From Thermodesulfobacteriota bacterium (GTDB lineage Bacteria > Desulfobacterota > Desulfobacteria > Desulfobacterales > C00003060), in the NCBI GenBank assembly GCA_034189385.1, contig JAXHVD010000004.1, forward strand, positions 1 to 64,000: a stretch of 64,000 nucleotides of DNA, given 5' to 3'. The notes below the pieces were generated by a model, which was not told the DNA's origin, did not search any database, and saw only the letters and a list, made by a program, of their open reading frames with translations. Shown piece after piece: positions 410 through 40,069 of the stretch. The position numbers and the translations under genes are program-made. Numbering within the stretch: the first letter of the stretch is position 1; each line of letters starts with the position of its first letter.

Positions 410-1558
410 ATGAAAATCTCTCATATCATCCTTTTGGCCATAGCTCTGATGCTGCTCCTGGTGGTGAGCAATTACCAAGCTATCTCCAAGATATGGTCCC
501 CTTCCCCCATAACAGCCCCCTTTTCGCCTGAGGCGTCTGAGGCAGGCGACGCCCCCTGGTACACCATGCAACTCCCTGTCCTTGGACAAGGTTTTAACGT
601 GTTGGTCCTCGTGGCTATTGGGTTCTCCGTGGGCATCCTGGGACGGTTTTTCGGGATGTTCGGTACGTGGATTGTGACGCCAGCCCTGCACATATTCGGC
701 TTTCCTGCGGCCATGGCCGTGGGCACAGACCTCACGCGAATGACTGGTGAATCTTACGTCACGGCCTACAAATATGCTAACCGGGAAGACGTGGATCCCA
801 AGGTGATTGTTCTCTTTGTCATGGGCATGGCCGTGGGCATTGAGATCGGCGTTCGGACCCTCTTGTGGCTCACCGGCCTCGATGTGGCCGGGACCGTGAT
901 ACGGGTTGTATACATGGTCGTTCTCCTGGGACTGAGCTTTTTCATCATCCTCGACTATTTGAAATCAAAGAGACAAAATGCTGGGTCCGGGGAAGGCATG
1001 GGCTGGACTGCCCCACCTGAGGGAGGCACTGCCGTGGCGCGCAAGCTCCAAGCCACCAACCTTCCCCCCATGATGACCCTGTCGTCTGGTGTAAGGGTCT
1101 CGCTGTGGAGCGTCTTGTTCATTGTCATGCTCACAGGTTGGTTCTTTGGGCTTCTAGGGGTGGTGGGCGGCCTTCTGCTTCTGCCCGCCATGATCTATCT
1201 CATGGGGATGCTTCCGACAACTGCTACAGGCATCGACCTCTTCAGCAGAGTCCTTTCCGGTACTTACGCCTGTCTGACCTATGCCTTGAAGGGCCAGGTG
1301 GAATTCCTGGGGGTTCTATGGGTTTTCCTGGGTATCATCATAGGGGTACAGGTAAGTGCCCGAGGGGCCCACTATATCCGTGGACAAGGGGTCCGGCTCC
1401 TTTTCGCCATCATCATGGCCATGGTGGGATTGTCCGTTGCGCTGAGGCAATTTGGCGCAACAGGTCTGTCCCACGTGATTTTGCTAGTTGCCATCCTTAC
1501 CATCTGTGCCATCGTCATCATCAAGCCGATCCAGGGCTTTCTGCAAAACCGACATTGA
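410..1558 (+). CDS. Sulfite exporter TauE/SafE family membrane protein
   Basis: Many TM helices, two internal repeats (GILGRFFGMFGTWIVTPAL..AVGTDL; GLLGVVGGLLLLPAMIYL..ATGIDL). Confidence 0.8.
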   Translation: MKISHIILLAIALMLLLVVSNYQAISKIWSPSPITAPFSPEASEAGDAPWYTMQLPVLGQGFNVLVLVAIGFSVGILGRFFGMFGTWIVTPALHIFGFPAAMAVGTDLTRMTGESYVTAYKYANREDVDPKVIVLFVMGMAVGIEIGVRTLLWLTGLDVAGTVIRVVYMVVLLGLSFFIILDYLKSKRQNAGSGEGMGWTAPPEGGTAVARKLQATNLPPMMTLSSGVRVSLWSVLFIVMLTGWFFGLLGVVGGLLLLPAMIYLMGMLPTTATGIDLFSRVLSGTYACLTYALKGQVEFLGVLWVFLGIIIGVQVSARGAHYIRGQGVRLLFAIIMAMVGLSVALRQFGATGLSHVILLVAILTICAIVIIKPIQGFLQNRH

Positions 1559-1578
1559 CAGGATCATGGTTGAAAATC

Positions 1579-4176
1579 ATGGCCAAGTTAAGAACGTTTT
1601 TCAAGAAGGTCTTCAAAGGAACAGACAAACCTGAAGAGTCCCCAGAAGCCCTCAGGTCCATGTTCAAGGTGAGGTACTGGAGTTTCAAGACCCTCTTGAA
1701 CGCCAATAACGCCGCCCTAGAGATCATCTCTGACATGGAGCGTGCCATTCACGGCACCCAGGGCTTTGGCATGGCCTTTATTCGGGCCAACTGCACTGCT
1801 GTCTCGGTCAATGTGTACAAGATCGTAGAGAACATGAACGCCCTTGCCCCCAACGGGTACCAAGCGCTCTTTGGCATCTTTGAAAAAATCCGAAATAAAG
1901 TAGATGGTGTGTTGGGTGAGCAGCGGGAGTTTGGGACGGGGAAACTGATACTTCCCCTTGAGGAAGTCAACAAGGATATGGCCGACCAAGTGGGCAACAA
2001 AATGGCGAACCTGGGAGAGATCAAGAATCTAGCGGGCCTCCCAGTCCCCGAAGGCTTTGTCATGACGGCCTCCGCCTACAAACGCTTTCTGGAACATAAC
2101 AGTCTCCAGGATGAGATCAATCGTCGAGTTCAACAGTTAAACCTTGAAGATATGGAAAAACTCCACACGGCAAGCGCCGATATTCAACAACTTATTATTC
2201 GTGCCAAACTTCCTCCTGAGCTTGAAGAGGCCATCCTTTCTCACTACAGGGGCCTCGAAAGAAAAACAGAAGAAGGCATTAACGTGTCCCTCCGCAGCAG
2301 CGCCCTGGGTGAAGACACGGAAAGGTCCTCCTTTGCCGGTCAGTACCGTTCAGAACTTAACGTACACCGTCAATTCCTGGGCCACACCTATAAAGAGATC
2401 GTGGCAAGCAAGTATACGCCTCAAGCAATCAGCTACCGCTTGAGCATGGGTTTCAAGGATGAAGATATTGCCATGTCTGTGGGTTGCATGGCTATGGTGG
2501 ATGCTGTTTCCTCAGGCGTCATGTATTCTGTCGATCCAGGAAACATTCGCAATAACGTGGTCTTCATTAATGCCGTATGGGGCCTTGCCAAAGCAGTGGT
2601 GGACGGCACCGTATCTCCAGATCTCTTTGTGATCTCCAAAGACCAGCCAGGACAAATCCTGAAAAAGGAGATCAGCACCAAGGAGCAGAGGTTTTTGTGT
2701 TTTGCCGAGGAAGGGGTGTGTCGCATGGCCCTAGTGGAAGGGGACAAGGACAAGCCTGCTATTGCTGATGACCAGGTATTAGCCTTGGCAGAGTTGGCCG
2801 CTCGCCTGGAAGATTATTATGGAAGTCCTCAGGACATCGAGTGGTCCATTGGACAAGATGGTGTGATAAGAATCCTCCAAAGCCGGCCATTGAGACAACT
2901 GGATGTAGAAACAAAGGCCATTGATGAGGTGACTAAACTCAAATTGGAGGCCCCTATTATCCTGGAAGGCGGGATCACGGCCAGCGGCGGAGTTGCCAGT
3001 GGACCAGCCTTTGTAGTCAATACCACAGTGGATATGCTCCAGTTCCCTTCAGGGGCCGTCTTGGTTACCCAACACAGTCTACCCCAATGGGCAGCAGCCT
3101 TGAGTCGTGCTGCTGCTGTGATTACAGATCGTGGGGGCATTGCGGGACATCTCGCCACTGTTTCGAGAGAGTTCAGTGTTCCCGCCCTCTTCAACACATT
3201 GGAGGCCACCAAGAAGATTGAAAATGGCACGATCCTCACCGTTGATGCAGAGGGACGGAAGGTCTACGAGGGGAAGGTGGAAGCCCTGCTAGAGGAGGCG
3301 TCTACCGCAAAGGTGAACCTCATGAAGGGCAGCCCTGTCTACAATACCCTGGAAAAGACCCTTCAATATATTTCCCCCCTGAACCTGACCGATCCCGATG
3401 GACCCGATTTCAAGCCCGAGGCGTGTCAGACCTATCACGACATCACCCGCTTTTGCCATGAAAAGGCCGTCAAGGAGATGTTTAGCTTCGGAAAGAAGTA
3501 CCACTTTCCGGAGCGTTCGAGTAAACAACTGGTCTGTGACATCCCTGTAAGATATTGGGTCATTGACCTTGAGGATGGATTCAAGGAGCCAGTTGAGGGC
3601 AACAAGGTGAAGTTGGAAAACATAGCGTCCATTCCCATGTTGGCCTTGTGGGAAGGTATCACGGCCATACCGTGGGGAGGTCCCCCTCCGGTCGACGCAA
3701 AAGGGTTTGCCGCCATCATGTTCCGCTCGACCATGGACCCGTCCTTGGATCCTGCGAGACAATCTCGTTATGCTGATAAGAACTACTTCATGATCTCAAA
3801 AAACTTCTGCAATTTAGCCTCTCGTTTTGGATACCACTTTTCAACCGTGGAGGCATTCTTAAGCGACAGGTCTAAGGAAAACTATGCGAGCTTCACCTTC
3901 AAGGGCGGGGCGGCCGATTTAGAAAGGAGAGTTCGGAGAATCAAGTTCATTGAGTATATCTTGGAACAATTCGGTTTTCGGATTGAGATCAACAAAGACT
4001 GGATGGTGGCCCGCTTGGAAGGATGCGAAAAGGATTATCTCATAGAACGGCTCAAGGTGCTCGGCTATGTCACCATGCACACTAGACAACTCGACATGAT
4101 TATGGCCAACCAGGCCAAGGTAAACTACTATATAGAACAGCACCTAAAGGATATACGTTCTTTCGTCTCCCTGTGA
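1579..4176 (+). CDS. PEP synthase/pyruvate,water dikinase-like protein (ATP-grasp domain + phospho-His swivel domain + non-TIM-barrel C-terminal domain)
   Basis: VGNKMANLGE, VSLRSSALGED..SFAGQY, PQDIEW, ILQSRP, TDRGGIAGHLATVSREF; start moved from the 1105 ORF start to ATG 1579 (MAKLRTFF) just after the TauE stop. Confidence 0.85.
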   Translation: MAKLRTFFKKVFKGTDKPEESPEALRSMFKVRYWSFKTLLNANNAALEIISDMERAIHGTQGFGMAFIRANCTAVSVNVYKIVENMNALAPNGYQALFGIFEKIRNKVDGVLGEQREFGTGKLILPLEEVNKDMADQVGNKMANLGEIKNLAGLPVPEGFVMTASAYKRFLEHNSLQDEINRRVQQLNLEDMEKLHTASADIQQLIIRAKLPPELEEAILSHYRGLERKTEEGINVSLRSSALGEDTERSSFAGQYRSELNVHRQFLGHTYKEIVASKYTPQAISYRLSMGFKDEDIAMSVGCMAMVDAVSSGVMYSVDPGNIRNNVVFINAVWGLAKAVVDGTVSPDLFVISKDQPGQILKKEISTKEQRFLCFAEEGVCRMALVEGDKDKPAIADDQVLALAELAARLEDYYGSPQDIEWSIGQDGVIRILQSRPLRQLDVETKAIDEVTKLKLEAPIILEGGITASGGVASGPAFVVNTTVDMLQFPSGAVLVTQHSLPQWAAALSRAAAVITDRGGIAGHLATVSREFSVPALFNTLEATKKIENGTILTVDAEGRKVYEGKVEALLEEASTAKVNLMKGSPVYNTLEKTLQYISPLNLTDPDGPDFKPEACQTYHDITRFCHEKAVKEMFSFGKKYHFPERSSKQLVCDIPVRYWVIDLEDGFKEPVEGNKVKLENIASIPMLALWEGITAIPWGGPPPVDAKGFAAIMFRSTMDPSLDPARQSRYADKNYFMISKNFCNLASRFGYHFSTVEAFLSDRSKENYASFTFKGGAADLERRVRRIKFIEYILEQFGFRIEINKDWMVARLEGCEKDYLIERLKVLGYVTMHTRQLDMIMANQAKVNYYIEQHLKDIRSFVSL

Positions 4177-4535
4177 GTTGAACGCCCGGCTTGTGGGTGA
4201 ACCGAAGCATCGGTCATAAAAAAATCCAAAAAGACCATCGGCGTTTTATGACAAGGAGATATTTTTGTTTACCACGCTGGCCTGCATGCATGTGTTCAGT
4301 AGCCTGACACATCCAAGGCATCTGGGCGAGGCCTCCGATGACATCCCTACACCGAAAGTGCTTTTGTCATTCGTGACTTTCTTGGTTGTGAGGCCTACTT
4401 CGGACCCATTATACTTCCTTGAGCCATTTGGATGAGGTGAAGAAGCAATGTTTTTTTCGTGGTGGTCTTTTGGGTGCTGCCTTTGCAGTGCCTTTTCAAA
4501 CAACGGGACAGTGGGAATAGAGGGGAGGTAGAACT

Positions 4536-4976
4536 ATGGTGCCGCTCAGAGTCCTAGTGGTGGATGACGAGGATGATTTCCGTCAGACCCTAGTAATGCG
4601 ACTGCAAAAGCGAGAGCTAGATGTGGTGGGAGTCCGAAGCGGGGAAGAGGCCCTTGAGTTGTTAGGTAAGAAGGGCTTTGATGTCGTTACTCTGGGCGTC
4701 AAAATGCCAGGCATGGACGGCGTGGAAGTCCTGGGAGAGATAAAGAAGAAATGGCCTCTCCTAGAGGTCATTATGCTTAGCGGCTGTGCCTCGGTGGCAT
4801 GCGGAGTTGAAAGCATGAGGCTGGGTGCTTTCGATTACGTTGTGAAGCCACCGGACATGGATGAGTTGTATGAGAAGTTGCAAAAGGCGTATGAAAGGAA
4901 ATCCCTGCAGGAAGAACAAGCTCACCATGCCAGGGCTAACGAAGGCAACGATCATCCCCAAAAGGCCGCTGAGTAG
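4536..4976 (+). CDS. Single-domain response regulator, atypical (phospho-acceptor Asp replaced by Gly)
   Basis: VLVVDDE..FDVVTLGVKMPGMDG..GAFDYVVKP; GGAGG RBS. Confidence 0.85.
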   Translation: MVPLRVLVVDDEDDFRQTLVMRLQKRELDVVGVRSGEEALELLGKKGFDVVTLGVKMPGMDGVEVLGEIKKKWPLLEVIMLSGCASVACGVESMRLGAFDYVVKPPDMDELYEKLQKAYERKSLQEEQAHHARANEGNDHPQKAAE

Positions 4977-5101: not shown

Positions 5102-7621
5102 GTGAGCGATAAGGTAAAATGCTGGGAGTATTTTCAGTGTGACAAGGCCCAATGCCCGGCTTACCAGTCAGAAGAGGCGATGTGTTGGGTTGCCTCGGGC
5201 ACCCATTGTCGAGACGAGATCCAGGGCAGGTTTCTGGAGAAGATGGAGATGTGCCTTGAATGCAAGCTCTTTAAAGAGAACATGAGTGTGGATTCAATGG
5301 TAAAAACCCTGAAGGTAGTAAACAGGCAGTTCACGGAATTTAGAGCGAGGGTGGAGCAATGCGATAGAGAGGCGCAAGGTGTCAGTATGGAGTTGGCCCT
5401 GGGGTTATCAGAGGCCTTTGAAGCCCTAAAACGGATTTCCTCTGGAGATCCTTTGGTCAGAATTGCTGAGACCTCGGGGCTTGAATTGATTTCTAAACTG
5501 AAGCACATCGTCAACCTGACCGCGGAAAACCTTGGAGAGATGGTTGATCTTTCTCATGAGTTCGCCATGGGGCTTGCCGAACACTTTAATGTCCTGCACA
5601 GAGTCTCAAAAGGGGACCTCACTGCCCAGGTATTGGGAAGTTCGCAATTGGAGCTCCTGGAATGCCTTAAGCAAGTCACAAATCAGATGATCGAGAGTGT
5701 CGCCAGGGAGATCAGGGAGCGGAAGAACGCAGAGGAGGCCCTTCGTGAATCTGAAGCAAAATACAGCGGGCTTTTGGAAAACTCACTGACGGGCATCTAC
5801 ATCGACCAGGATGGAAGGATCGTCTTTGCCAACAGGCGATTTGCTGAAATTTATGGCTATTGGAGAAGAACATTGATCGGCATGGAATCGTGGCGATTGG
5901 TCCATCCCGATGACAGGGCACTCACAAACGAAATGCGGGCAAAACGGCTCAAGGGCCAGCCAGTTCCGTCGGAATACGAAGCCAAAGGCCTCACAAAAGA
6001 TGGCCGAACCATATGGATTATAAGGAGAAACAAGCGGATAGAGTACGAGGGACGGCCTGCTGTCTTGGGTAACATCGTGGATATCACACAAAGAAAACGG
6101 GCAGAACAGGCCCTGCGAGAACGGGAGGAAGAACTCAGAAAAAGACATCACGAGCTAGAGGCCGTAAACAGCATCCTTGTACGGGTCACAGAGCAATACG
6201 ATCTGAATGGTATGGGCCGTGTCCTCCAAGACACGATGGAAGAATTCTACCCAAAGATTCATACTCTCCTCTTCCTTCTTGTGCCAAACGGAGAGGGCTT
6301 TTACTTGCCCCAGGGAAGGCGGGGTCAGAGTAAACCAACCTGCTATGATCGAGCCACAGACAGAATCAAGGACCCCGACCTGGAGCACGATCTGCTTACC
6401 TTGTTAACCACTGAAAAGGTCCGGCCCCTTCACTCCGGGGAAAAGGCTCATGGCCCGGCCATCATCCAGCGTCTCGCCCAGGAATATAGGGCGTGGATGG
6501 CCGTCCCTATTGAAGTGGACGAGGTATGCTATGGACTTTTTCTGGTGGGATCACCGTTCAAAGACGTCCCAGTAGAGGAAGATTTGATCTTTATGGAATC
6601 CCTGATCCGCCGAATTTCCGGGGTAATCAAGAATCAGATTTCCAAGGAGCTTCGGGAGGAAGCATTTAAAAGGCAGCTGACCGGTCCGGACAAATTCATG
6701 GGCATCGTCGGCCAAAGTCAGCCTATGCAAAAGATCTACCGTATGATCGAGGCAGTGAGTGATTCAGAAAGTACGGTCCTTGTTACGGGCGAGAGTGGAA
6801 CGGGAAAAGAGCTCTTGGCCCGTGCCATTCACCAAGCAGGCAAATACAGGGGGACTCCGTTTTTGGCTGCCCATTGCTCTTCCTTTGTCCCCACGCTGGT
6901 CCACTCCGAGCTTTTTGGACACGAGAAAGGGGCGTTTACAGGGGCTTCTAAGCGCAAACTTGGACGGCTGGAGCGAGCTCAGGGCGGCATTCTCTTCTTG
7001 GATGAGGTCGCTGATTTGCCTCTTGAGACCCAGGTCCTCCTTCTTAGATTTCTGCAGGACAAGAGTTTCGAACGGGTGGGCGGTGAATATCCTGTTGAGG
7101 CCAATGTAAGGATTATTGCGGCTACCAATAGACAGGTTGAAAAGGAGTTGGAGTCCGGTCGTCTTAGAGAGGATTTCTATTATCGGTTAAATGTGGTGCG
7201 TATCCATGTGCCTCCCCTTCGCGAACGTATCATGGACGTACCTTTGCTGGCGAATCATTTCCTTCGGACCTACTGTCTCATTGAGGGAAAAGAGGTGGCG
7301 GGATTTGATACAGAGGCCATGCAATTGATCATGCATTATCACTGGCCCGGGAACGTGAGAGAGCTCCAAAACACCATCGCCAGATGTGTGGTGTTGTCCT
7401 CAGGGCCCTCTATCCGGGCCGAGGACCTGCCCCAGACCGTCCATACTCCCCACAGGGCTGCGACGGACTACTCGCTGGCAAAAAATGAAAGGGACCTCGT
7501 CTTGCAGGTACTCAATAAATGCAACTGGAACAAACACGAAACCGCCCGCGTACTCGGCATCAGCAGAACAACTCTATATAGTAAGCTGAAAAAACACAAC
7601 ATTCGACCACAAGCCATCTGA
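5102..7621 (+). CDS. Sigma-54-dependent activator: Cys-rich two-CW module, HAMP-like region, PAS, GAF-like, AAA+, Fis HTH
   Basis: GESGTGKE, SELFGHEKGAFTGA, LFLDEV, WPGNVRELQN, LGISRTTLYSKL. Confidence 0.92.
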   Translation: MSDKVKCWEYFQCDKAQCPAYQSEEAMCWVASGTHCRDEIQGRFLEKMEMCLECKLFKENMSVDSMVKTLKVVNRQFTEFRARVEQCDREAQGVSMELALGLSEAFEALKRISSGDPLVRIAETSGLELISKLKHIVNLTAENLGEMVDLSHEFAMGLAEHFNVLHRVSKGDLTAQVLGSSQLELLECLKQVTNQMIESVAREIRERKNAEEALRESEAKYSGLLENSLTGIYIDQDGRIVFANRRFAEIYGYWRRTLIGMESWRLVHPDDRALTNEMRAKRLKGQPVPSEYEAKGLTKDGRTIWIIRRNKRIEYEGRPAVLGNIVDITQRKRAEQALREREEELRKRHHELEAVNSILVRVTEQYDLNGMGRVLQDTMEEFYPKIHTLLFLLVPNGEGFYLPQGRRGQSKPTCYDRATDRIKDPDLEHDLLTLLTTEKVRPLHSGEKAHGPAIIQRLAQEYRAWMAVPIEVDEVCYGLFLVGSPFKDVPVEEDLIFMESLIRRISGVIKNQISKELREEAFKRQLTGPDKFMGIVGQSQPMQKIYRMIEAVSDSESTVLVTGESGTGKELLARAIHQAGKYRGTPFLAAHCSSFVPTLVHSELFGHEKGAFTGASKRKLGRLERAQGGILFLDEVADLPLETQVLLLRFLQDKSFERVGGEYPVEANVRIIAATNRQVEKELESGRLREDFYYRLNVVRIHVPPLRERIMDVPLLANHFLRTYCLIEGKEVAGFDTEAMQLIMHYHWPGNVRELQNTIARCVVLSSGPSIRAEDLPQTVHTPHRAATDYSLAKNERDLVLQVLNKCNWNKHETARVLGISRTTLYSKLKKHNIRPQAI

Positions 7622-7778: not shown

Positions 7779-8873
7779 CTAAGACCTTAGTCTTTTCTTA
7801 CAGGCACGAAGGGCTGTTTCCACATGCATCCGAACCCATCCGTTTTTGTCCTTTATAGCTTGACTAAGTGGACCGATGGCCCTTTCGTCGCCAATCTCGC
7901 CAAGGGCCTTTGCTGCCTGGACGCGCAAATTCTTATCTCCATCCCCTAAAGCTTGAACGAGTGCATCAACGGCCCTGGCATCCCCTATCTTGCCAAGGGC
8001 CCATGCTGCCTGGACTTGCACATGAGGTGTATCGTCGTCCGTTAAGACTTGAATCAGAGACCCCACGGCTCTCGGGTCCCCTATCGTCACAAGGGCCCAT
8101 GCTGCACGTTCTCGAGCAATACGGGCGTCATCATCCGTTAAGACTTTCATGAGTGATTCGATGGCTGCTGCATTCCCTATTTCACCGAGAGCATCTGCTG
8201 CTCCTGCCCTCACACTTGCCGCCTTATCCGCCAAGGCCTGGACGAGTGGATCAACAGCCCTCGGGTCTCCCACCTCGCCAAGAGAAATCCCTGCGTGATG
8301 TCGCACATCCTCATTTTCGTCTCCCAAAGCTTGGATGAGTGAGTCGACGGCTCTGGCATCCCTTATCTCACCAAGAATCTTCGCGGCCTCAACACGCACA
8401 TCTGCATTTTTGTCCCTTAGGGCCTGGATAAGGGGCTCCACTGCCCTTGCATCCCCTATCTTGACCACTGCTCGGGCTGCCTGACGTCGAACTTCACTGT
8501 CTTCATCCCTCAAGACCTGCACGAGGGGCTCCACCGCCCTTGCATCCCCTATTTCAACAAGAATCTTTGCGGCCTCAACGCGCACATCTGCATTTTCGTC
8601 CTCTAAGGCCTGGATGAGGGGCTCCACCGCCCTTGCATCCCCTATCTTGACCACTGCTCGGGCTGCTTGACGTCGGACACCACTGTCTTCATCCCTTAAG
8701 GCCTGGATGAGGGGCTCCACTGCCCTTGCATCCCCTATATCGCCAAGAATCCGTGCTGATATCTCTCTTATCTCTGCATCTTTCTTGTAACTAAGAGCCC
8801 GTATGAGCCCTTCACTGTCCTTCTTGTCCTTCAGTTTAGCCACATTAGGCGCAAACAAATCCTTGAATCCCAT
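7779..8873 (-). CDS. HEAT/PBS-lyase repeat protein
   Basis: About 10 repeats of ~31 aa: [29 protein letters not shown]. Confidence 0.9.
8380..8750. repeat. Intragenic 93-bp tandem repeat with a 186-bp higher-order unit
   Basis: gcccttgcatcccctat occurs exactly at 8443, 8536, 8629 and 8722. Confidence 0.85.
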
Positions 8874-10477: not shown

Positions 10478-12538
10478 TTATCCGTCTTCTGGAGATCCAG
10501 GGAACCGCAATTCAAAGGTTGTCCCCTTGCCTACTTTACTTTCTACCCTGATAGTTCCGCCATAATCCTTGACAATCCCGTAGCTGATAGAAAGCCCCAG
10601 TCCGGTGCCTTTGCCTACTTCCTTAGTGGTAAAAAAGGGATCGAATATCCTGTCTATAATATCGTCTGGAATGCCACTACCCGTGTCCGATACGGTAACT
10701 GTGACGTCTCCGTTGTCAAGGAAGGATTTTATCTGCAATAGCCTAGTTGAACGGGGTGCTTTCTCCTCCATGGCATGCCTGGCATTGGTCACCAAGTTTA
10801 TAAAGACCTGTTCTAGTTTATTGCTATCTGCCATGATGGGAGGCAAATTTTCATCCAGGTCCAATTCTAATTCAATTTCACGCAGTTTCAGTTGCTGACC
10901 CAATATTTTAAAAACATCTCGGATCGGTTTGTTGACATCTACCTCTTCAGCTTTGGTGTCCGCTATCCTGGCAAAATCTCGCATATGCTTAATAATTGCA
11001 GAGGCTCTATCCACCTGGTTGCTCATTTCTTCAGTCACCGTATTGAGTTCTTCACCGGTCACCTTTTTGCCCTCGCTCGCCATCTCTCTGAGAAAGTCAC
11101 TGCCGATCTTCATAACATTAAGTGGTTGGTTCAATTCATGGGCAATGCCCGCCGCCATTTCCCCCAAGGTCGCAAGTTTGCTAGCCTGAATTAACTGGGC
11201 TTCTTTCTCCACACTCTCTGTCACATCGGTCGTGGTAGCAATCAGGGCATCTCTTTCCATATAGCTGCAGCCACATACATGGATGTTTGTATAGAACAGC
11301 CTGCCGTCTTTTCTGCGGTGTTGCTTCTTGGAAAAAACGATAGACCTATGATCCGTGACATCTTTGAAACGTACCATAATTTCTTGTGCATCTTCCTTAT
11401 AACCCAGATCTAGGAAAGACATGTTCAGAAGCTCTTCTTTCGAATAGCCATAATGGACCTCAGCCCTGCCATTTGCGTCCAGAATCTTCAGTGTTTCACG
11501 ATCCAGAATAAAAATAGGGTTCGGATCGCTATCAAATAGGAGCCTATATTTTTCCTCCGACTGCCTCAGCTCTTTCTCAGAGGCCTTTAACTTGTCAAGC
11601 ATATGTTTAAATGAATCGGCCAACTGAACCATTTCGTCGCCCACATGGCTTCTGTAGACCTTGCATTTTCGGCACTCCTCCAACTTTTCTGGGAAGCTTC
11701 CTGAAGCCTGGCCTTGACAGAGGGTCCCATCCTGGTACCAACAGAGCGTCTCAGGATTTCCATGTGCCGGGCAGTTCGTTTTGTCACATTTTTCCACTTC
11801 CCAGCATTTCAGCCTCCTACCAAATTCGAATCCTGGCTTTCCCCTACTGATCTCATCGGCCAGGTCGGTCAGGGTGCAAAGGGGTCGTGTAATGTATTTT
11901 GACAAGAATAGAGTCAGGAAAAAAGCCACAACGACGATAGAAACAACTCCCAAGGTAATCTCTCTATTCCTGAGGGCTGCGATCCTCTCCTCTATGGGGC
12001 CCCAGCTAATGCCTACGGTCAAGACGCCCAGTATTCTGTCTTCAGCCCAATGGCACTTATGACACGTTGTTTCATTGGCGATGGGCATGGCATGCTCAAG
12101 TATTTTTTCTCTTCCCTGCATCTCCAAGCCCTTTACGAGGGAATGCGTGCGTAACGCCTTCTTGGCAGCCTCAGAATGATCACGTTGGCCTATGTTGGCC
12201 GGTAATCCACTATATTTGATGGTACCCTTAAGATCGCAAAGATTTACCACTGTCACATTTTGCAAGGTGTACAAGCTCTCCAAGATGGCCTGGACGTCCT
12301 CCATCTCTCCGTCGAGCATGGGATACTCAATACTTCTCATGACGGTGTCACTAATCTCATAGGCTCGTTCTTCCTGTTTGTTAAAGTGGAACTTCGTGCG
12401 CGTCACCATGTCATAATAGGTGAAAAGGCCCATGACGACGGTCAGGATCGCGCTCACACCCAATATGACCTTAACCGTCAAGCTGGCTACATGGAGCCTA
12501 GACCGTAGCCTCTCCAAAAATCGCATCGTTCGTCCCAT
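10478..12538 (-). CDS. Membrane sensor histidine kinase: periplasmic CxxCH domain, HAMP interrupted by a two-CW module, PAS, kinase
   Basis: Two TM segments flanking [28 protein letters not shown]; start at ATG 12538 after GGAG (ORF track gives GTG 12568). Confidence 0.9.
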
Positions 12539-12589
12539 CTTCTTGACTCCCGATATGCCCACGCTCACAGCGGCAGGTCTGGCAACAGC

Positions 12590-16565: not shown

Positions 16566-18059
16566 TCATAACTGTGGCACAGCGAATGCGATGATGTTGG
16601 ACAAAATCGCCTGATTGTACAGGCCTATCAGAATGATACCTAGGGCTATAGCAATGGTTGGAATTAACATGCTCAGGGGGGCCTCGTCTATTATGGCGCC
16701 GTGGCCCGCCGCGCTGTGGGTGTTTCCCCCGTGAGATGCCTGGAAGACGTATCCAATTTCAATCACGCGAAAAAAGAGAACCACGCTAATGAGACTCGAT
16801 AAAAGCAAGGCGATGAGAAAGGCCCAATGATCAGCTATGACGGCCCCCTGAATAAGATACCACTTGCTAAAAAATCCGCAGGTGGGGGGAACTCCGATGA
16901 TGGACAAGGCACCGACCACGAAAGCAAACATGGTAAAGGGCATCTTTTTGAAGAGGCCGTGAAAATCAGATATATCATGGGATTTCGTCTTGTACATGAT
17001 GATGCCAGCAACCGTAAAGAGCCCTACCGTCATCACGGCATCATTGAGGATATGAAGGACTGCTCCCTTCATGGCTATCGTGTTGGCCAATCCTACGCCA
17101 CCAACAATATAACCCACCTCTGCCACTACAACATAACAGAGCATCCTTTTGAAATCAGTCTGGGCAAGGGCCATTATGCCGCCCCCTAAAATGGCAACGA
17201 AGCCGGCCCAGACCATGATGTCCGTAATCGGTAGCAGCTCTATAGATAAGTGGGGCTTAAACACGCTAAAAAGGACTCTGATCATCACATAGAGCGATAT
17301 CTTGGTCATCAAGGGGGCAATCAGGGCGCTGGTAGCTGAAGGGGCCTTTGTATAGGCGTCCGGCAGCCACACATGGACAGGGAAAAGGGCCATCTTGACT
17401 GCTAACCCCGCAAGGAGGAATGCGATGGCTGTTAGAATGACCCTTGAATCGTACAATTGGGGAAGTAGTTGATAAACATCGGCCATATTAAGAGAACCGA
17501 TTGATATATAGATGTAGCCAACACCTAATAGATAAAAACAAGCGCCGATGGTTCCCATGACAATGTATCTGAAAGTGGCCAGGGGGGCCCCATCCTCGCC
17601 AATGGCGATCAGGGCATAGCCGGCCAGAGAGCCAATCTCCAAGAACACATAAAGATTGAAGAGATCTCCGGTGATGACGATGCCCAAAAAACCCGTCACC
17701 TGCAGCAAAAACACCGTGTAAAAGTAAACGACTCTTCCGGGCAATTCCTGTTCAACGGTTCGCTTCGAATACAAGGCCACAATCAGGCTGATCGAAGAGA
17801 CGATCACCAACATCATGGCATTGAGATGGTCCACCACATATTCGATCCCGAAGGGAGGGGCCCAGCCCCCCAGACGATAGTGAATAGTGCCGCTGGCTAT
17901 CACGGCAAACAGGGTGTTAATAGATGCCAGAACACACAATGAAAGGGCAACAATGGCCCAAAGGTAGCATAGGCCTCGCCTCCACAGTCCAATAAGGGGA
18001 CAAAAAAGGGAAGATACCAAAGGAATGACAACAATGAGGATGGGGATCTGCGCTATCAT
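16566..18059 (-). CDS. mrpD: Mrp cation/H+ antiporter subunit D (cluster 1)
   Basis: YRLGGWAPPFGIEY, DLFNLYVFLEI, KMALFPVHVWLPDAY, GFFSKWYL. Confidence 0.9.
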   Translation of the reverse strand: MIAQIPILIVVIPLVSSLFCPLIGLWRRGLCYLWAIVALSLCVLASINTLFAVIASGTIHYRLGGWAPPFGIEYVVDHLNAMMLVIVSSISLIVALYSKRTVEQELPGRVVYFYTVFLLQVTGFLGIVITGDLFNLYVFLEIGSLAGYALIAIGEDGAPLATFRYIVMGTIGACFYLLGVGYIYISIGSLNMADVYQLLPQLYDSRVILTAIAFLLAGLAVKMALFPVHVWLPDAYTKAPSATSALIAPLMTKISLYVMIRVLFSVFKPHLSIELLPITDIMVWAGFVAILGGGIMALAQTDFKRMLCYVVVAEVGYIVGGVGLANTIAMKGAVLHILNDAVMTVGLFTVAGIIMYKTKSHDISDFHGLFKKMPFTMFAFVVGALSIIGVPPTCGFFSKWYLIQGAVIADHWAFLIALLLSSLISVVLFFRVIEIGYVFQASHGGNTHSAAGHGAIIDEAPLSMLIPTIAIALGIILIGLYNQAILSNIIAFAVPQL

Positions 18060-18063
18060 CTTC

Positions 18064-18459
18064 TCAACCTCTCTTTATGCTCATGATGATTTCGTCTTCT
18101 TCTAATGTGTTATATCTCCTGTAAATCATGATGCAGACCGCTACGGCCACGCCCAGAGTAGCCACCATGACCACAATGGCCGTAAGCATGAGCACATGGG
18201 GTAAGGGATTGGCATATTGCATGATGTTAACGGCATGGTGAGCACCATGGCCTCCGTGGCCATGCTCCAGAATGGGAACGGTGACCCCACCCTTCTTGAC
18301 GGATGTGGAGATATAAAAAAGTATGATAGCAGACTGAAATATGTTCATCCCGATGATCTTCTTGATCAAATTCTTCTTTGCCATCATCGCGTAGAAGCCT
18401 ATCATCATTAGACCTACATAAGCCCAATAGTTATAATGGCTCACAACGAATTCAAACAT
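18064..18459 (-). CDS. mrpC: Mrp antiporter subunit C (cluster 1)
   Basis: NLIKKIIGMNI..NPLPHVLMLTAIVV..YNTLEEDEI. Confidence 0.9.
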   Translation of the reverse strand: MFEFVVSHYNYWAYVGLMMIGFYAMMAKKNLIKKIIGMNIFQSAIILFYISTSVKKGGVTVPILEHGHGGHGAHHAVNIMQYANPLPHVLMLTAIVVMVATLGVAVAVCIMIYRRYNTLEEDEIIMSIKRG

Positions 18460-18469
18460 GGCGCTTCTC

Positions 18470-18745
18470 CTACTTGCTACGTCCCCTTCTCAATAATAAT
18501 ATGCATGCCATGCCAGCCGTAAAGATAACCGTGGTCTCCCCCAGGGTGTCATAACCTCTGTAGTCAGCCAGGACCGAGGTCACCACATTAGGCGTTGCCG
18601 TTTGTTCCAGGCTGTGGTGAAGGTAATAGGCCGATACATGTGTACTGGCGGCAGAATGGGGGTCACCCCATTTGGGCATATCGAGGGTCCCATAGATGAG
18701 TCCGGCCCCGACAAGTACTCCGGTAATAACGCTTAAGGTTTTCAA
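18470..18745 (-). CDS. MbhE/MrpA-C-terminal-like small subunit (cluster 1)
   Basis: PNVVTSVLADYRGYDTLGETTVI. Confidence 0.85.
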   Translation of the reverse strand: MKTLSVITGVLVGAGLIYGTLDMPKWGDPHSAASTHVSAYYLHHSLEQTATPNVVTSVLADYRGYDTLGETTVIFTAGMACILLLRRGRSK

Positions 18746-18987
18746 TCTTTTGACCTCCTCTCCGTTTTACTCACTGCCCCGATCATGAGCACCGTTCCGA
18801 TACTGGCACTTACAGAGGCTTCTGTAAATGCCACATCAACGGCGGCCATTTGAGTCCAAAGGAGACACATCAGGAAGCTATAGGCACCCAGAATGACGAC
18901 TGCACTCAAAAGGTCTCTGATGGTAATAGCTGCCACGGCACAGATGAATACAAAAAGAATTAAGATGAGATCCAAGGGGAGAATCAT
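18742..18987 (-). CDS. DUF4040/MbhD-like Mrp subunit (cluster 1)
   Basis: AVDVAFTEASV motif; ATG 18987 overlaps the mrpG stop. Confidence 0.85.
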   Translation of the reverse strand: MILPLDLILILFVFICAVAAITIRDLLSAVVILGAYSFLMCLLWTQMAAVDVAFTEASVSASIGTVLMIGAVSKTERRSKD

Positions 18988-19304
18988 TTTTCGCCTCCTT
19001 TTGCCAGAGTCCACGGCCGGACATTACATCTGAAGGCCGCCCTTGAGATAGCGTGGGTGGCTGTGGGTTGTGCCAGGAATAAAAACACCGCTATAAAGAC
19101 AATCTTTGCGCTCGTGAGTGTAAATCCGTGGTATACGGCAAGCCCGGCAAGGGACCAAAGGGCCGCCAGGGTATCTCCCTTGCCAGTGGCATGGAGTCTG
19201 GTAAAAAAATCGGGTAAACGTAGCAGGCCCAAGGTGGCCGTGGCAAAGAAGAAGAAACCACCCAACATAAACAATACCGCTAGAATGTCTTTGACTGGCA
19301 TCAC
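18984..19304 (-). CDS. mrpG: Mrp antiporter subunit G (cluster 1)
   Basis: GLLRLPDFFTRLHATGKGDTL..PTATHAI. Confidence 0.9.
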   Translation of the reverse strand: MMPVKDILAVLFMLGGFFFFATATLGLLRLPDFFTRLHATGKGDTLAALWSLAGLAVYHGFTLTSAKIVFIAVFLFLAQPTATHAISRAAFRCNVRPWTLAKGGEK

Positions 19305-19567
19305 GCTTCTCCCGTTCTCTCGATATATTTTGCCAGGACCACCGTACCTATGAAATTCAAGAGGGCATACACCATGCTGATGTCGATAAACATGTCTATC
19401 CTGTCATAGATAACGCCCATGATGAGCAAGATGATCAATGTCTTGGTACCAATGGCAGAGATGCCGGCGGCCCTGTTTAAGACTCCTGGCCCATAGGTGG
19501 CCCGATAAAGACAACACAACACCAAGACGCACATTCCCACACTCAGGATCAAGAAGAAATCGATCAT
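19301..19567 (-). CDS. mrpF: Mrp antiporter subunit F (cluster 1)
   Basis: YRATYGP..DISMVYALLNFIGT. Confidence 0.88.
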   Translation of the reverse strand: MIDFFLILSVGMCVLVLCCLYRATYGPGVLNRAAGISAIGTKTLIILLIMGVIYDRIDMFIDISMVYALLNFIGTVVLAKYIERTGEA

Positions 19568-20028
19568 TTTCCACTCCGATCATCTTCCAGGGATTCACCC
19601 ACGGTGAATATGACAAAAAAGATGGTAAACATAACCGCCATGACGGCCAGGGCCACGCCGATCTCAACGCCCAAGATTCCCAGAGACCTCGCCTGGGCCG
19701 GTGTGACACGAAGGACCTTGCTCAGCTTGCCATAATCGAGATAGTTCCCCCCCAGAATGAGACAAAGGGCCCCGATGCCTGCATAGATAAAAACTCCGAT
19801 ACTGCTGATGACCCCTGCCACCTTTTCAGACATGCGTTTTCTCGTTTCTCCCAGGCCGTAACTGATACCCAGCAACACGAAACCTGCCGCCAAGATGACA
19901 CCCCCTTGAAAGCCTCCCCCCGGGCTGTGATGCCCGTGCATGACCACATAGAGGGCATAAACGATAATAAAGGGCATCAACAATCTGGCCAGTGTCTTCA
20001 CAATGACGTCTTGACTATCCCGTATCAT
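19564..20028 (-). CDS. mrpB: Mrp antiporter subunit B (cluster 1)
   Basis: HGHHSPGGGFQGG..EIGVALAV. Confidence 0.9.
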   Translation of the reverse strand: MIRDSQDVIVKTLARLLMPFIIVYALYVVMHGHHSPGGGFQGGVILAAGFVLLGISYGLGETRKRMSEKVAGVISSIGVFIYAGIGALCLILGGNYLDYGKLSKVLRVTPAQARSLGILGVEIGVALAVMAVMFTIFFVIFTVGESLEDDRSGK

Positions 20029-20070
20029 CCTCCCCCCTTGTTGATAACAACTTACCTGACATGAGACTAT

Positions 20071-20790
20071 TTATGCACGCAGTACGTCATATATGCGAGC
20101 AGCATCCAGCACATCCTGCACGTACAGATGATCCGCCTCCATGAATATGTGAGCCACCCTGTCTTCCATCTCACCTGCGTTCAGATCGTCTGCGACCTTC
20201 TGGTCTAAGGCATGCACGTAGTAGACACCGTCTTTGATATCCATGGTAATGGTTCCAGGCGTAAGCGTAATGGAATTTGCCAGGGTGACGCTGGAGATAT
20301 CAGTCTCCAGTTTTGTCTTGAATGTTACTATCTGAGGGTCTATCGGCATCTTGGGGCGCAGCACCACAGAGGCGACGTGGAGATTTGACAATACGATCTG
20401 TTGGATGAGCCACGGAATGTAGGCAATGAATCTTGCCGCTATCACGCGCATGTCTCCGACTCTCACGTTGGCGAACAACAGATCATGGAACAAGTAGGCG
20501 GCTACGGTACAACAAACAGCCCCAAGGGTGAGGTGAAAGGCGTCAAATTGGCCAGAAAGCAATATCCAGAAGGCAAAAAGGATCAGGGTCGTTCCCACAA
20601 AGTTCTGAAACCGCGTCTTCCTCCTCTGGGCTCCGGCGAAGAGCAACTCCCACCTTTTTTCTTCAAGAAATCTGGTCTGCTCGCCCGTAAACTGCACAGC
20701 CGTATCTAATACACCCAGAGCATGGACCCTGGCCTTTTCCATGATCCTGAAAGCGTTCTCTGTCGCTTCCAGCAATAGGGTCACCTCCAT
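20071..20790 (-). CDS. mrpE: Mrp antiporter subunit E with N- and C-terminal extensions (cluster 1)
   Basis: FWILLSG..LANSITLTPGTIT..VHALD. Confidence 0.88.
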   Translation of the reverse strand: MEVTLLLEATENAFRIMEKARVHALGVLDTAVQFTGEQTRFLEEKRWELLFAGAQRRKTRFQNFVGTTLILFAFWILLSGQFDAFHLTLGAVCCTVAAYLFHDLLFANVRVGDMRVIAARFIAYIPWLIQQIVLSNLHVASVVLRPKMPIDPQIVTFKTKLETDISSVTLANSITLTPGTITMDIKDGVYYVHALDQKVADDLNAGEMEDRVAHIFMEADHLYVQDVLDAARIYDVLRA

Positions 20791-20823
20791 TTTCGTCCTC
20801 CTTTGTGAAATGCCTCCCGGCGA

Positions 20824-21585
20824 TCAAGGAATGACCAGCGTGGGCACCACCGATGCCTCTGCCACCCGATAGGAATAGCTTTTAGATAGAAGCTCTTTCA
20901 GGAAAGACTTGCCAGTGGTCCCCATAACGATACAAGTGCCGCCATAATCCTGGGCCGCCAGCATGATCTCAGCGGCCGGCTCACCTGCATAGACATGGCC
21001 TTCGGCGTCTATGCCCTGATCCAAAAAGATCTTCCGTGTTTGAGAAAGCTTCTCTTTCAGATTTCCCATGTCTCTTACAGATAGTTTAGTGTCTAGAACA
21101 TAGACAATTTCAAGCTCCTTGATAAGTTCTTTAAAGTGCAGCAGATAACTGCGAGCCTTTTCAGAGGCAGCAGACCAGTCATCAGCAAACATGACATGTG
21201 AGAATATGCCTTCTTGTGCGGCCCCTGATGCTTGTGCATTTTCGGGTAAGATCATTACAGGGACAGGGGATGATCTGAGCAAATCTTTTATCAGAGCGCT
21301 ACGGACCCGGCCGCCTGCGTCCCCCTTGAGGCTGGCTGCGATCAGCGAGACTTTTTCCCGGTGAGCTACGTCCAAGATGCTATCGGCCATCTTCCCTTCC
21401 ATCACAAAGGTGCTGGCGCTTATGCCATGTTCAGCCATCCTTGTTTCCCAGTCTTCCACTTTGGTTGCATGCAAAAAGATGACTTCCTCAAGTCCAAGTG
21501 TGCGGAGCTCCATAAGGCGTTGCACCCTTGCAAACTGTGGCTCTCTCACACCTGTGGCATAGAGTAGTTTTTTTATCTGCATCAT
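20824..21585 (-). CDS. Tandem-domain universal stress protein
   Basis: Two USP-like halves ending SSPVPVMIL and IVMGTTGKS..ASVVPTLVIP. Confidence 0.8.
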   Translation of the reverse strand: MMQIKKLLYATGVREPQFARVQRLMELRTLGLEEVIFLHATKVEDWETRMAEHGISASTFVMEGKMADSILDVAHREKVSLIAASLKGDAGGRVRSALIKDLLRSSPVPVMILPENAQASGAAQEGIFSHVMFADDWSAASEKARSYLLHFKELIKELEIVYVLDTKLSVRDMGNLKEKLSQTRKIFLDQGIDAEGHVYAGEPAAEIMLAAQDYGGTCIVMGTTGKSFLKELLSKSYSYRVAEASVVPTLVIP

Positions 21586-22019
21586 TGCCCTACTTCGTCC
21601 CTGTCGTCAGATTTATCAGATGAGCCCGGGCTCAATATCTGTTTCACCGTGGCTGCCAGCCGCTCAGGTGTCACAGGTTTTTCCAGATAGCCATCTGGAT
21701 CCGGGACACTCCCACCCCTGCATTCCGTCTGGGCGGCCTGTGCGCGCAATGCGGTTCTCTTAGCCACTCCCGAATATATGATCACTGGAATGTCTTTCAA
21801 AGACTCAGAGGTCTTAAGCTTACGATAAAGCCTAATCCCGCTCTCTTTTGGCATCAGAATATCCAGAATAATTAAATCCGGTTTCTGTTGCCTGATAATA
21901 TCCAAAGCTTCCTCACCGTTTGTTGCCTGGATAGGCGTATATCCATTCTCTTCCAGCACAGTGGAAACAAATTCCCTCACATGGTCTTCGTCATCCACGC
22001 TGAGTACGGTCTTTAACAT
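21582..22019 (-). CDS. Single-domain response regulator
   Basis: VLSVDDE..ILDILMPKESG..YLEKP. Confidence 0.88.
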   Translation of the reverse strand: MLKTVLSVDDEDHVREFVSTVLEENGYTPIQATNGEEALDIIRQQKPDLIILDILMPKESGIRLYRKLKTSESLKDIPVIIYSGVAKRTALRAQAAQTECRGGSVPDPDGYLEKPVTPERLAATVKQILSPGSSDKSDDRDEVGQ

Positions 22020-22096
22020 CTAGATATCCTCCAAATAGCTCTTTGTACTGATAGGACCTTCGGTCTTCAATAATAACTAGGGGGGAAACCCCCACC

Positions 22097-23866
22097 TCAG
22101 CCCAAAAAGGCAAACACCACAAAGAGTAAAAACATAAAAACCAGACTCACAAATACCGGCACCCCCATAGCCATGAGACTGGTTGCCTCTGGGCTTGTCT
22201 CCTGTTCAAATTCCTCTATGGCAACACGATCCTTACCTATAGTCTTCATATAAAGGGATACCAAAGAGGTTAGTGGCCTCCTGCTAAAGCGCCCCACCCA
22301 TACCGGAATCCCCTGAGCAATGGCACGGTCAGCAAGTGCGTTAACGCCATTTAACACCTTGTCCACAACATAGTAAAAGTGACGTGCCCCCTTACGGTAA
22401 AACCAATCAGTGTCAAGATTGATGGCCCTCACTTGTGCCGGATAGTAGCCGGTCCGTATAAGTAGAAGAAAAGCTAGGCCGCCGAACATGAGCAACTGCA
22501 ATTCGTTCACGACGTGTGGGACAGTGTATGGGACAAAATCTACCGGGTAAGGAAGAATATCATAGAGGGCTCCTGGGAATAAGCCAGTAACAATGCATAA
22601 AAAGGCAGCACCCCCCATGGCAAAAAGCATATTCAGGGGGGGGTCTTTTGCCCTTATGCCGGAGTCCTTTCCAAAAAAGGTTAAGAAAGGAACCTTGATA
22701 CCAGCATGAAGAAAGACACCGGCTGAGGCAAATTGTAAAATGAGCCATATGACAGACAGTTTTTCATGGGCCGCGGCACTGACAATCATGGACTTGCTAA
22801 TGAAATCATTAAAGAGCGGAAAGCCGGAGATCGATGCCGCGCCTATCATGCAAAACAGGCATGTCAAAGGCATGGTTTTGTATAGACCGCCCAAGTCTGT
22901 ACATCTAATCTTCCCGGTCATGTGAAGCACAGATCCTGCAGCCATGAACAGGAGGCCCACATACAGGATATCGCAGAAGGCATGGGAGACAGCACCATTT
23001 ATGGCCAGTTGCGTCCCGATACCGATTCCCACCATCATGAATCCGACCTGATTGATGATGATGTAAGCAAGTACGCGCCTCACATCATTTTCAAGCATCC
23101 CGTATAAGAGAGGAACGACAGTCATAATGGCTCCGAGCCATATTAGAAGCTCCGTCCCCGGAAAGGTTCTTGCCATAAGATATACTGCGCTCTTGGTGGT
23201 AAGGGCACACATGAATACCGCACCTGTAACGGTTGCTTCAGGATAGGCGTCCTGAAGCCAAGCATGGAGAGGGGGGATTGCAGCGTTTAGGGCAATACCA
23301 ATGAATATAAGCCAGGAAGCTGTGCCACCCAATCCTATGTAGCTAAACTCTGTGGTACCTGAATCGTGGATATAGACTATGATGCCTGCCAGAAGACACA
23401 GACCTCCGAAGACATGGACCAGGATATACCTGAAGGCTGCAAGCTGTGATGCCGTTGTCCTGCGCGCCAGGATCAGGAACGTAGAGCTGATCGCCAGTAA
23501 TTCCCAAAATATGTAGAGAGAGAAAAAATCACCAGAAAAAGTAACACCCAAGGCGGCTCCAGCATACATCAGGGCTGAAACGTGCTGCAAATCGTCTCTT
23601 ACTTTCAAGGCAAAAAGAAGCCCTAAGAAGGATATGAACGTAAATATATATCCAAAGACCATGCTGAGACTGTCTACCCTGCCGAAGATAAGATCGTAAT
23701 CCAGAATCCTCACTATCCAGTACTTTCCTTCCGGCATCTTGACAAGGGTAGCAAAGGCAAGCAGGGGCAGGACCAACATGTATGCGGATTTGACCCTTCC
23801 CCTGATCAAGGGGACAAAAATGGCACCCACGATAAATATCGCTGCTGGGGGAATCACGTTAATCAT
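22097..23866 (-). CDS. MrpA'/D-like antiporter subunit (cluster 1)
   Basis: FWELLAISS, PPLHAWLQDAYPEAT, NLDTDWFYRK; start MINVIPP at 23866. Confidence 0.88.
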   Translation of the reverse strand: MINVIPPAAIFIVGAIFVPLIRGRVKSAYMLVLPLLAFATLVKMPEGKYWIVRILDYDLIFGRVDSLSMVFGYIFTFISFLGLLFALKVRDDLQHVSALMYAGAALGVTFSGDFFSLYIFWELLAISSTFLILARRTTASQLAAFRYILVHVFGGLCLLAGIIVYIHDSGTTEFSYIGLGGTASWLIFIGIALNAAIPPLHAWLQDAYPEATVTGAVFMCALTTKSAVYLMARTFPGTELLIWLGAIMTVVPLLYGMLENDVRRVLAYIIINQVGFMMVGIGIGTQLAINGAVSHAFCDILYVGLLFMAAGSVLHMTGKIRCTDLGGLYKTMPLTCLFCMIGAASISGFPLFNDFISKSMIVSAAAHEKLSVIWLILQFASAGVFLHAGIKVPFLTFFGKDSGIRAKDPPLNMLFAMGGAAFLCIVTGLFPGALYDILPYPVDFVPYTVPHVVNELQLLMFGGLAFLLLIRTGYYPAQVRAINLDTDWFYRKGARHFYYVVDKVLNGVNALADRAIAQGIPVWVGRFSRRPLTSLVSLYMKTIGKDRVAIEEFEQETSPEATSLMAMGVPVFVSLVFMFLLFVVFAFLG

Positions 23867-24101
23867 AATAGTCCTCATCCCTTTTAATAAATATACGCCA
23901 CGCCTTTGCTATGAAAACGAGCACTACACAGGAGCCAAATCCATAGGCTGCGAAAAAACCCGGAGCATCCTCCCATGGAAAGTCAGCATGCTTGTGGACA
24001 AAGAAGTCAACGATGAGGAGCACTATCAAAAATGCAGAAAAGAAACCCAGCAACCTTTTTACATTTTCTGGCTTGTCAAAAAGTTTCAGCTCTCTTTTCA
24101 T
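23859..24101 (-). CDS. Small membrane protein of Mrp cluster 1
   Basis: LFDKPENV..FPWE..GFFAAYGF..REDYYD-type end; paralog of 40070-40330. Confidence 0.8.
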   Translation of the reverse strand: MKRELKLFDKPENVKRLLGFFSAFLIVLLIVDFFVHKHADFPWEDAPGFFAAYGFGSCVVLVFIAKAWRIFIKRDEDYYD

Positions 24102-24154
24102 CTAAACCCGTCCCCTCTATTTGGTTACAAGGAAGGTTTAAGAAAAACGATGGC

Positions 24155-34986: not shown

Positions 34987-35053
34987 AAGCTCTTCAGATC
35001 AAAGTAAAACAAGGTCATGGGATCCGGACCATAGACTTGGGAGATTCTGAACA

Positions 35054-35377: not shown

Positions 35378-35380
35378 CCC

Positions 35381-36450: not shown

Positions 36451-36453
36451 GTT

Positions 36454-38351: not shown

Positions 38352-38405
38352 TGAAGGAAAGGCATATCAGACTTGCATCCTACTAACTATTAACAAGGCA
38401 TTGAT

Positions 38406-39884: not shown

Positions 39885-39887
39885 GTC

Positions 39888-40028: not shown

Positions 40029-40069
40029 TCAAGAAACGATGCCACATACTGGATAGGAGAACACTCATA

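Follow-up and report, generated by a model that had tools for sequence, protein, structure and literature searches.

The window analysed here is a stretch of 64,000 nucleotides from a Thermodesulfobacteriota bacterium whose genome amounts to 4.13 Mb and is 90% complete, and the start of the window is the end of a contig (C34). Close to this end, a permease, a dikinase-like enzyme and a receiver are encoded in a row, with the following features.

410..1558, + strand: TauE/TSUP-family anion permease gene, 382 aa (PF01925, E 2.5e-30)
1579..4176, + strand: PEP-synthase-like swivelling-His protein, 865 aa, with a module predicted to be split between its N- and C-terminal parts (Pfam, homologues, model)
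1642..1914, + strand: N-extension helices 22–58, 65–89 and 96–112, predicted as three of the four helices of a composite bundle (model, covariation)
1942..2922, + strand: ATP-grasp domain (PPDK_N), residues 136–448, with K141, R239, E421, Q434 and R436 (PF01326, E 6.4e-96)
2941..3288, + strand: swivel phospho-His domain (PEP-utilizers), residues 489–558 (PF00391, E 1.9e-16)
3316..4176, + strand: C-terminal alpha/beta domain, without a clear match among solved structures (model, fold searches)
3433..3498, + strand: helix 619–640, carrying H620-D621-x-x-R624-x-x-H627-E628, predicted as the fourth bundle helix (model, covariation)
4177..4535, no strand: 359-nt spacer (contig comparison)
4536..4976, + strand: stand-alone receiver in which Gly takes the place of Asp54, a degenerating pseudo-receiver (PF00072, E 2.7e-26)

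The permease scores 106 bits against PF01925 (cut-off 32.6), which places it in TAUE/TSUP, and it is of the solo type, without the gene for a 228-aa partner; it is 50–52% identical to the TauE encoded directly upstream of the orthologous enzymes in loci L001, L029 and L052. A second TauE gene together with the 228-aa partner lies on the same contig outside the window (G000:C34:91734–93907), and this partner usually flanks the enzyme family in other genomes. The 865-aa gene begins with the ATG at 1579, 20 nt past the TauE stop (end at 1558), as the first-pass annotation had read it. The ORF caller set the start of this frame at an upstream GTG at 1105, within tauE; the five nearest homologues, of 865–867 aa and covering 98–100% of the protein, favour the ATG.

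Positions 1–121 of the window are identical (121/121) to the end of contig C1, which holds the start of a sigma-54 activator gene whose orthologue lies upstream of tauE in relatives, and they contain a gene start at about 72; this segment is probably a duplicated divergent operon that was collapsed in the assembly. A perfect sigma-54 consensus (one match) is found at 105–119 on the minus strand, sites with one mismatch numbered 5 versus 5.1 expected, and no significant sigma-54 signal was found upstream of tauE. With a pattern of our own, a sigma-54 site was assigned to 8 of 70 TauE genes and to 2 of 140 family genes.

The enzyme has kept both the ATP-grasp domain and the phospho-His motif ascribed to it in the first-pass annotation: PPDK_N spans residues 136–448, the swivel motif GGIAGHLATVSRE contains His524 (codon 3148–3150), and the modelled ATP-grasp domain superimposes on rifampin phosphotransferase (RPH; 5hv1) over 315 residues with an rmsd of 1.9 (Z 39). 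Among 146 diverse full-length members of the family, K141 is conserved in 137, R239 in 145, E421 in 139, R436 in 143 and His524 in 135, and 128 of the 147 family genes in the fetched loci keep K141, R239, E421, R436 and H524 together. Given this conservation of the nucleotide-site residues and of the swivel His, the 865-aa protein is likely to undergo ATP-dependent His phosphorylation, by analogy with the chemistry of PEP synthase (PPS) and RPH.

The order of ATP-grasp and swivel-His domains and the conserved residues of the nucleotide site are shared with PpsA (TIGR01418, NF005057; PDB entries 2ols, 8a8e and 9dae) and PPDK (TIGR01828). The sources label the homologues 'pyruvate, water dikinase', and the best PDB sequence matches of the 865-aa protein, over residues 123–580, are PEP synthases. 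The reading implied by the database names, an ordinary PEP synthase whose barrel has diverged, is nevertheless very improbable and is already contradicted in silico. The PEP synthase models match through only their first 60%, TIGR01418 aligning only profile positions 1–472 of 784 with 379 bits against a cut-off of 739.75 and NF005057 scoring 395 against 598, so that the protein falls outside the full-length PEP synthase equivalog. No PF02896 match was found in the window protein or in 58 family members. In residues 581–865, neither PEP-utilizers_C nor any other Pfam family was found above cut-off (E<=1), bearing out the earlier remark that the C-terminal part lacks the PEP/pyruvate barrel, and residues 1–124 gave no Pfam family above cut-off. 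A (beta/alpha)8 TIM barrel was likewise rejected for the C-terminal domain, the model of which shows consecutive antiparallel strands. Complete PEP synthase and PPDK proteins, each scoring above the NCBIfam cut-off, are encoded elsewhere in the genome beside two Kinase-PPPase regulators, the true PPS lying at G000:C4 with PF02896 at E 2.3e-66; on the absence of PF02896, the non-barrel model and this separate PPS, the earlier judgement that the protein is no pyruvate-using PPS or PPDK holds. The genome's PPS has Thr two residues before its His, which we take to be the regulatory site, whereas the window protein has Ala, and among the 146 members this position is Ala in 86 and Thr in 44.

The model of the C-terminal domain (pLDDT 91.5, pTM 0.82) consists of helices and an antiparallel sheet, and the conserved residues of the domain are H753, G776-G777, R783, R787, D807, R836-Q837 and D839. 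Foldseek gave no match for this model at E<=0.001, and the best match in the VIA fold search was coproporphyrinogen oxidase 1tk1 (Z 6.0, rmsd 5.0, 134 aligned), followed by MotA and bilin reductases with Z of 4–5. Judged from the model, these scores are at background level and demonstrate neither kinship nor a new fold; the RIF-binding-domain fold was absent from the matches, an absence compatible with likeness to it. A PDB sequence search with the domain gave nothing under E 0.17, and an ESM Atlas search gave only unnamed clusters of the same family.

In the full-length model (pLDDT 88.7, pTM 0.81), the N-extension is helical, as previously described, and its three helices are predicted to pack with helix 619–640 into one four-helix bundle. 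Many four-helix-bundle matches span model residues of about 25–640 with 115–135 residues aligned, for example 5w93 (Z 11.1, rmsd 3.0, 123 aligned). Covariation over 391 sequences (effective number 270), which overlap those given to AlphaFold and are thus not fully independent of the model, ranked Y94–F625, I82–C626, M53–L595 and S76–Y619 within the top nine pairs, and M634–M840 and A779–Q837 connect the R836-Q837-L-D839 motif with helix 619–640 and the Gly-Gly loop. Y619, I622, F625 and C626 are thereby set against the N-extension, which would leave the H620/H627 pair on another face of the bundle. The bundle is predicted to sit beside a conserved site of His, Asp, Arg and Gly-Gly residues along the edge of the C-terminal sheet, the closeness of the conserved residues being deduced from topology and covariation. 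For docking of the swivel, covariation gave no clear signal (best I547–I791, z 6.9, and G59–G523, z 5.8).

The N-extension is present in 219 of 219 full-length proteins, and 37 natural variants, dominated by one close clade, consist of the N-extension and the C-terminal domain without the ATP-grasp. D621, H753, G776, G777, R783, R787 and D807 are kept in 37/37 of these variants, H620 in 34/37 and H627 in only 11/37, and the swivel His is gone in 26 of the 27 that still bear a swivel. From the modelled bundle, the covariation and these variants, in which both parts persist without the ATP-grasp, we infer that the N-extension and the C-terminal domain constitute a single module, interrupted by the inserted ATP-grasp and swivel domains. 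Unlike PpsA and PPDK, the family would thus combine the absence of a PEP/pyruvate barrel with a single module made of the N-extension and an unrelated C-terminal domain.

The use of ATP-grasp and swivel domains on a non-pyruvate acceptor is also a feature of RPH (NF041857) and the related PigC and HpeI. According to the available part of PMC4844700, RPH joins the same two domains to a separate substrate domain and needs an Arg-Glu pair for the second transfer, but its substrate domain is central and its His domain C-terminal (His825). The His domain of the window protein is central (489–558) with 300 residues after it, so that the domain order is not that of RPH, and the protein scores 249 against a cut-off of 999 for NF041857. 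The RPH precedent lends itself to a small-molecule dikinase that would phosphorylate or activate an anion or organic acid carried by the adjacent permease, the receivers and kinases regulating operon expression only; we consider this doubtful. The Arg/His/Gly-rich conserved set of the C-terminal domain would suit anions. In Dissulfuribacter thermophilus, moreover, consecutive tags for a TauE, a membrane partner and a 'PEP synthase' are co-induced in thiosulfate disproportionation (log2 1.56, 1.79 and 3.40, respectively; PMC13490349, as far as the accessible portion of that report goes). Against a small-molecule substrate stand the many paralogues per genome, the absence of a recurring metabolic enzyme from the neighbour clusters, and the ATP-grasp-less variants, which keep the C-terminal residues, although one close clade dominates that set. 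The authors of that study interpreted the rise of the 'PEP synthase' as gluconeogenesis (PMC13490349, same portion); the protein is likely a misnamed member of the present family, and thus a likely example of how members named pyruvate, water dikinase can be misread in physiology papers. An RPH-order dikinase-like protein of 726 aa, with PPDK_N, an unknown middle part and a C-terminal His domain, is encoded elsewhere in the genome (L138:668–2845, G000:C23) and overlaps a PNPOx-like gene. A 747-aa candidate for a nitrate-cluster gene in L101 was rejected, since its domain order is that of RPH and its neighbours are UbiA and AcrB genes.

The C-terminal 285 residues retrieved at least 1210 representatives (50% identity clusters, E<=0.001) among 1.84 billion sequences. 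Counting the present genome, the family occurs in 31 of 41 related genomes and in 44 of 121 genomes of the phylum, and a single genome can have as many as 9 matches; named records are mostly from Desulfobacterales, Syntrophobacteraceae and Desulfovibrionaceae, with single ones from Anaeromyxobacter, Gaiellales and Bacteroidales. No published description of it was found in the open literature, that is, outside subscription journals and bioRxiv supplements. This is a real, mis-annotated and uncharacterised family of swivelling-His dikinases, typical of anaerobes of the sulfur cycle, with an unrecognised acceptor module. Its multiple copies and catalytically degenerate paralogues suggest a pattern more typical of signalling than of metabolism.

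Of the 133 family genes with enough flank, 74 have a stand-alone receiver no more than 450 nt away, versus 17 of 361 long ORFs of the present genome. Within 4 kb of 106 family genes, a receiver is found for 94, a kinase for 71, a TauE for 62 and another family member for 44, and 73 of them have any TauE/DASS/CitMHS permease; the neighbour labels come from profiles built here and checked against Pfam, and the loci were chosen by us and include kin that are not independent. The recurrent neighbour clusters comprise permeases, kinases, receivers, Usp and CBS proteins. The identity matrices of the enzymes and their adjacent receivers correlate (rho 0.43, shuffled maximum 0.17, shared ancestry not removed), and in a quick tree the receivers next to the enzymes do not form a single clade (51 rows required 27 changes, at least 9 of them forced). 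The neighbourhood analysis suggested at the outset has thus revealed a link to TauE-type permeases and stand-alone receivers that is kept across the phylum. Receiver–PPDK fusion response regulators are on record (Galperin et al. 2018, PMC5847659, in the part available) and likewise link a receiver to a dikinase-like enzyme; those are fusions, whereas separate genes are found here, and the comparison concerns the linkage of receiver and enzyme. No genuine receiver fusion was seen in the family, and none over 1514 aa occurred among 469 candidates, which is weak evidence. A row of a SulP-like transporter, a cytidylate-kinase-like/receiver fusion, a kinase and receivers at L067:9650–16812 (G000:C7; labels by sequence likeness) has the neighbour types of the dikinase module without a dikinase-like gene.

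At the window locus itself, a receiver gene does follow the enzyme, as the first-pass annotation stated; that it starts 359 nt on and has Gly at the acceptor position had both been missed. Contigs of related organisms (one each from X1 and X3, from the same study) join 4178 to 4514 without 335 nt of the spacer, and blastx against the fetched loci found no protein remnant in it. The Gly54 codon, GGC at 4695–4697, is covered by the X1 contig with 0 differences, X1 possibly being the source sample. The receiver thus lacks the canonical phospho-acceptor Asp after beta3, which 95 of the 97 receivers from the initial loci retain, as do 38 of 41 stand-alone receivers of the same genome. It is 59–64% identical to four of its nearest orthologues, versus 75–88% among those, while the enzyme is 69–72% identical to its orthologues, versus 72–77% among those. 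In the nearest orthologous loci (L001, L002, L003, L051 and L052), TauE, enzyme and receiver occur together, usually with a dCache kinase that the window locus lacks. Given the Gly at the acceptor position, the receiver is unable to serve as a phospho-acceptor at this locus, and the earlier proposal that the enzyme donates His-phosphate to receivers finds no support here. The missing kinase, Gly54 and the faster divergence of the receiver indicate that the signalling half is decaying at this locus while the enzyme and permease persist, and, as the enzyme is conserved while the receiver decays, coupling to the receiver appears to be dispensable here.

The conserved bundle nonetheless raises a phosphorelay as an alternative, which we regard as possible but unlikely. 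The family would then be a sensor kinase built on PEP-synthase chemistry and not on GHKL, in which the phosphoryl group would pass from His524 to H620 or H627 on an HPt/DHp-like composite bundle and then to stand-alone receivers at their Asp. Paralogues with a dead ATP-grasp, encoded downstream of the receiver, would take the group back as relay stations, and the resulting His-His-Asp-His relay would control sulfur-anion permeases in sulfate reducers. Kinase H-boxes have a His followed by an acidic residue, and an acidic residue follows each bundle His (H620-D621, H627-E628). Among the 128 intact copies, H620 is kept in 127, D621 in 128, R624 in 127, H627 in 128, H753 in 126, R787 in 125 and D839 in 125; the His pair, as deduced from covariation, would face away from the N-extension. 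Six loci (L061, L087 and L124–L127) encode a paralogue with an eroded ATP-grasp and an intact swivel His and C-terminal site, with a receiver called directly beside it in five, the typical order being TauE, Alph_Pro_TM, intact copy, receiver, dead copy and third copy; 6 of the 19 genes flagged as degenerate (P.H.C rows), which seem to be truncated by contig ends or frameshifts, were left out of this point. The resemblance to HPt/DHp is limited to a predicted four-helix bundle with a conserved His, since its matches are generic (Z under 12), its parts are separated by about 500 residues in the sequence, and no Hpt or HisKA Pfam match was found in 58 family members at E<=0.1. A relay is further opposed by the window receiver, which has Gly at the acceptor position beside an intact enzyme, by the bundle Z-scores, which at under 13 are generic, by the sheet-edge residues H753, GG, R783, R787 and D839, which exceed the needs of an HPt, and by the loss of H627 from most ATP-grasp-less variants. 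As 71 of the 106 family genes have a sensor kinase within 4 kb, the receivers usually have an ordinary donor at hand.

Genetic evidence comes from the Desulfovibrio nitrate cluster (DVU0251–DVU0245 / Dde_0597–0605), which, in the available part of the report of Korte et al. 2014 (PMC4001038), consists in order of a permease, a small protein, a PtxB-like protein, a kinase, a 119-aa receiver, a dikinase annotated with ATP-grasp and mobile domains only, and a DSP phosphatase. According to that part, mutants with insertions in the TauE DVU0251, the receiver DVU0247 and the dikinase DVU0246 were resistant to nitrate; the phosphatase mutant of DvH (DVU0245) was not, whereas the G20 phosphatase mutant was (+2.08); and the DvH kinase DVU0248 is annotated as a pseudogene, its mutant having little advantage in preliminary data (PMC4001038). 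Transposon polarity may contribute to these phenotypes. Resistance of the receiver mutant despite a pseudogene kinase speaks for a relay and fits receiver phosphorylation by something else. Leaky thiosulfate transport was proposed by the authors (PMC4001038, same part), and action of the dikinase on the permease, or together with it, is no less compatible with the genetics than gating by the transporter.

In Desulfovibrionaceae, L131 and L134 show the complete nitrate-cluster order from TauE onwards (the receiver and phosphatase of L131 being seen in the overlapping locus L128), L133 and L135 show it from the PtxB-like gene onwards, and L136 has its TauE, kinase, receiver and dikinase. The dikinases of these syntenic loci carry the N-extension, almost all of the key residues and the C-terminal domain (31–34% identity, E 1e-35 to 8e-44), and synteny would place DVU0246 in the family; at a stated length of 2235 bp, this gene falls short of the 816–857-aa ORFs of the syntenic loci. 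With a TauE and a stand-alone receiver beside a barrel-less dikinase, the window locus resembles the nitrate cluster, but the cluster belongs to a distant subclade, and the PtxB-like binding protein, kinase and DSP phosphatase of its operon are all absent from the window locus, where the receiver is degenerate. As a partner, the DSP phosphatase was found in one subclade only, with 3 ORFs among the loci fetched first, and the present genome, at 90% completeness, yielded no full-length homologue of it. In the nitrate-cluster-type phosphatases, an intact CX5R motif is fused to a Cys-rich C-terminal domain:

L132:15018–16100, CX5R/Cys-rich phosphatase
L133:13766–14806, CX5R/Cys-rich phosphatase
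L134:11532–12671, CX5R/Cys-rich phosphatase
L135:5985–7076, CX5R/Cys-rich phosphatase

The conserved receiver, kinase and permease neighbourhood, the separate true PPS and PPDK and the genetics of Korte et al. lead us to favour, with slightly less than even confidence, a receiver-controlled swivelling-His phosphotransferase that acts on a protein target and switches an anion permease. The family protein would be the output enzyme of a module of sensor kinase and stand-alone receiver controlling TauE- or DASS-type permeases. ATP and water would charge His524 with release of AMP and Pi, and the swivel would bring the phosphoryl group to a second site, formed by the conserved residues at the sheet edge of the C-terminal domain. 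The receiver, phosphorylated by the neighbouring kinase, would dock on the bundle and switch the reaction, and the acceptor would be a protein, the permease or its partner, and not pyruvate. At the window locus, since the adjacent receiver can no longer be phosphorylated, the enzyme may run unregulated or use another receiver of the genome. The favoured reading is weakened by the restriction of the DSP partner to one subclade, by the decay of the window receiver, by the different outcomes of the phosphatase mutants in G20 and DvH, by the annotation of the DvH kinase as a pseudogene, by the shorter length given for DVU0246 and by possible transposon polarity.

The family bears on the uptake and gating of sulfate, thiosulfate and inhibitory nitrate in sulfate reducers, and the favoured reading would offer a candidate mechanism for the nitrate-resistance genes of Desulfovibrio. 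The split-bundle model names H524, H620/D621, H627, H753 and D839, and together with the natural dead variants makes the question directly testable.

Further along the window, two Mrp-like antiporter operons (16566–25636 and 34121–42095), in which MNHE and Proton_antipo_M were confirmed for one gene each, lie among many kinases and receivers, and a HEAT-repeat protein with about ten PBS-lyase-like repeats is encoded at 7779–8873. Kinases and a sigma-54 activator at 5102–7621, 10478–12568 and 45451–48093 share the Cys-rich motif CWE..CD...CP...CW...GT.C...C.EC, which is possibly an Fe–S or metal sensor.
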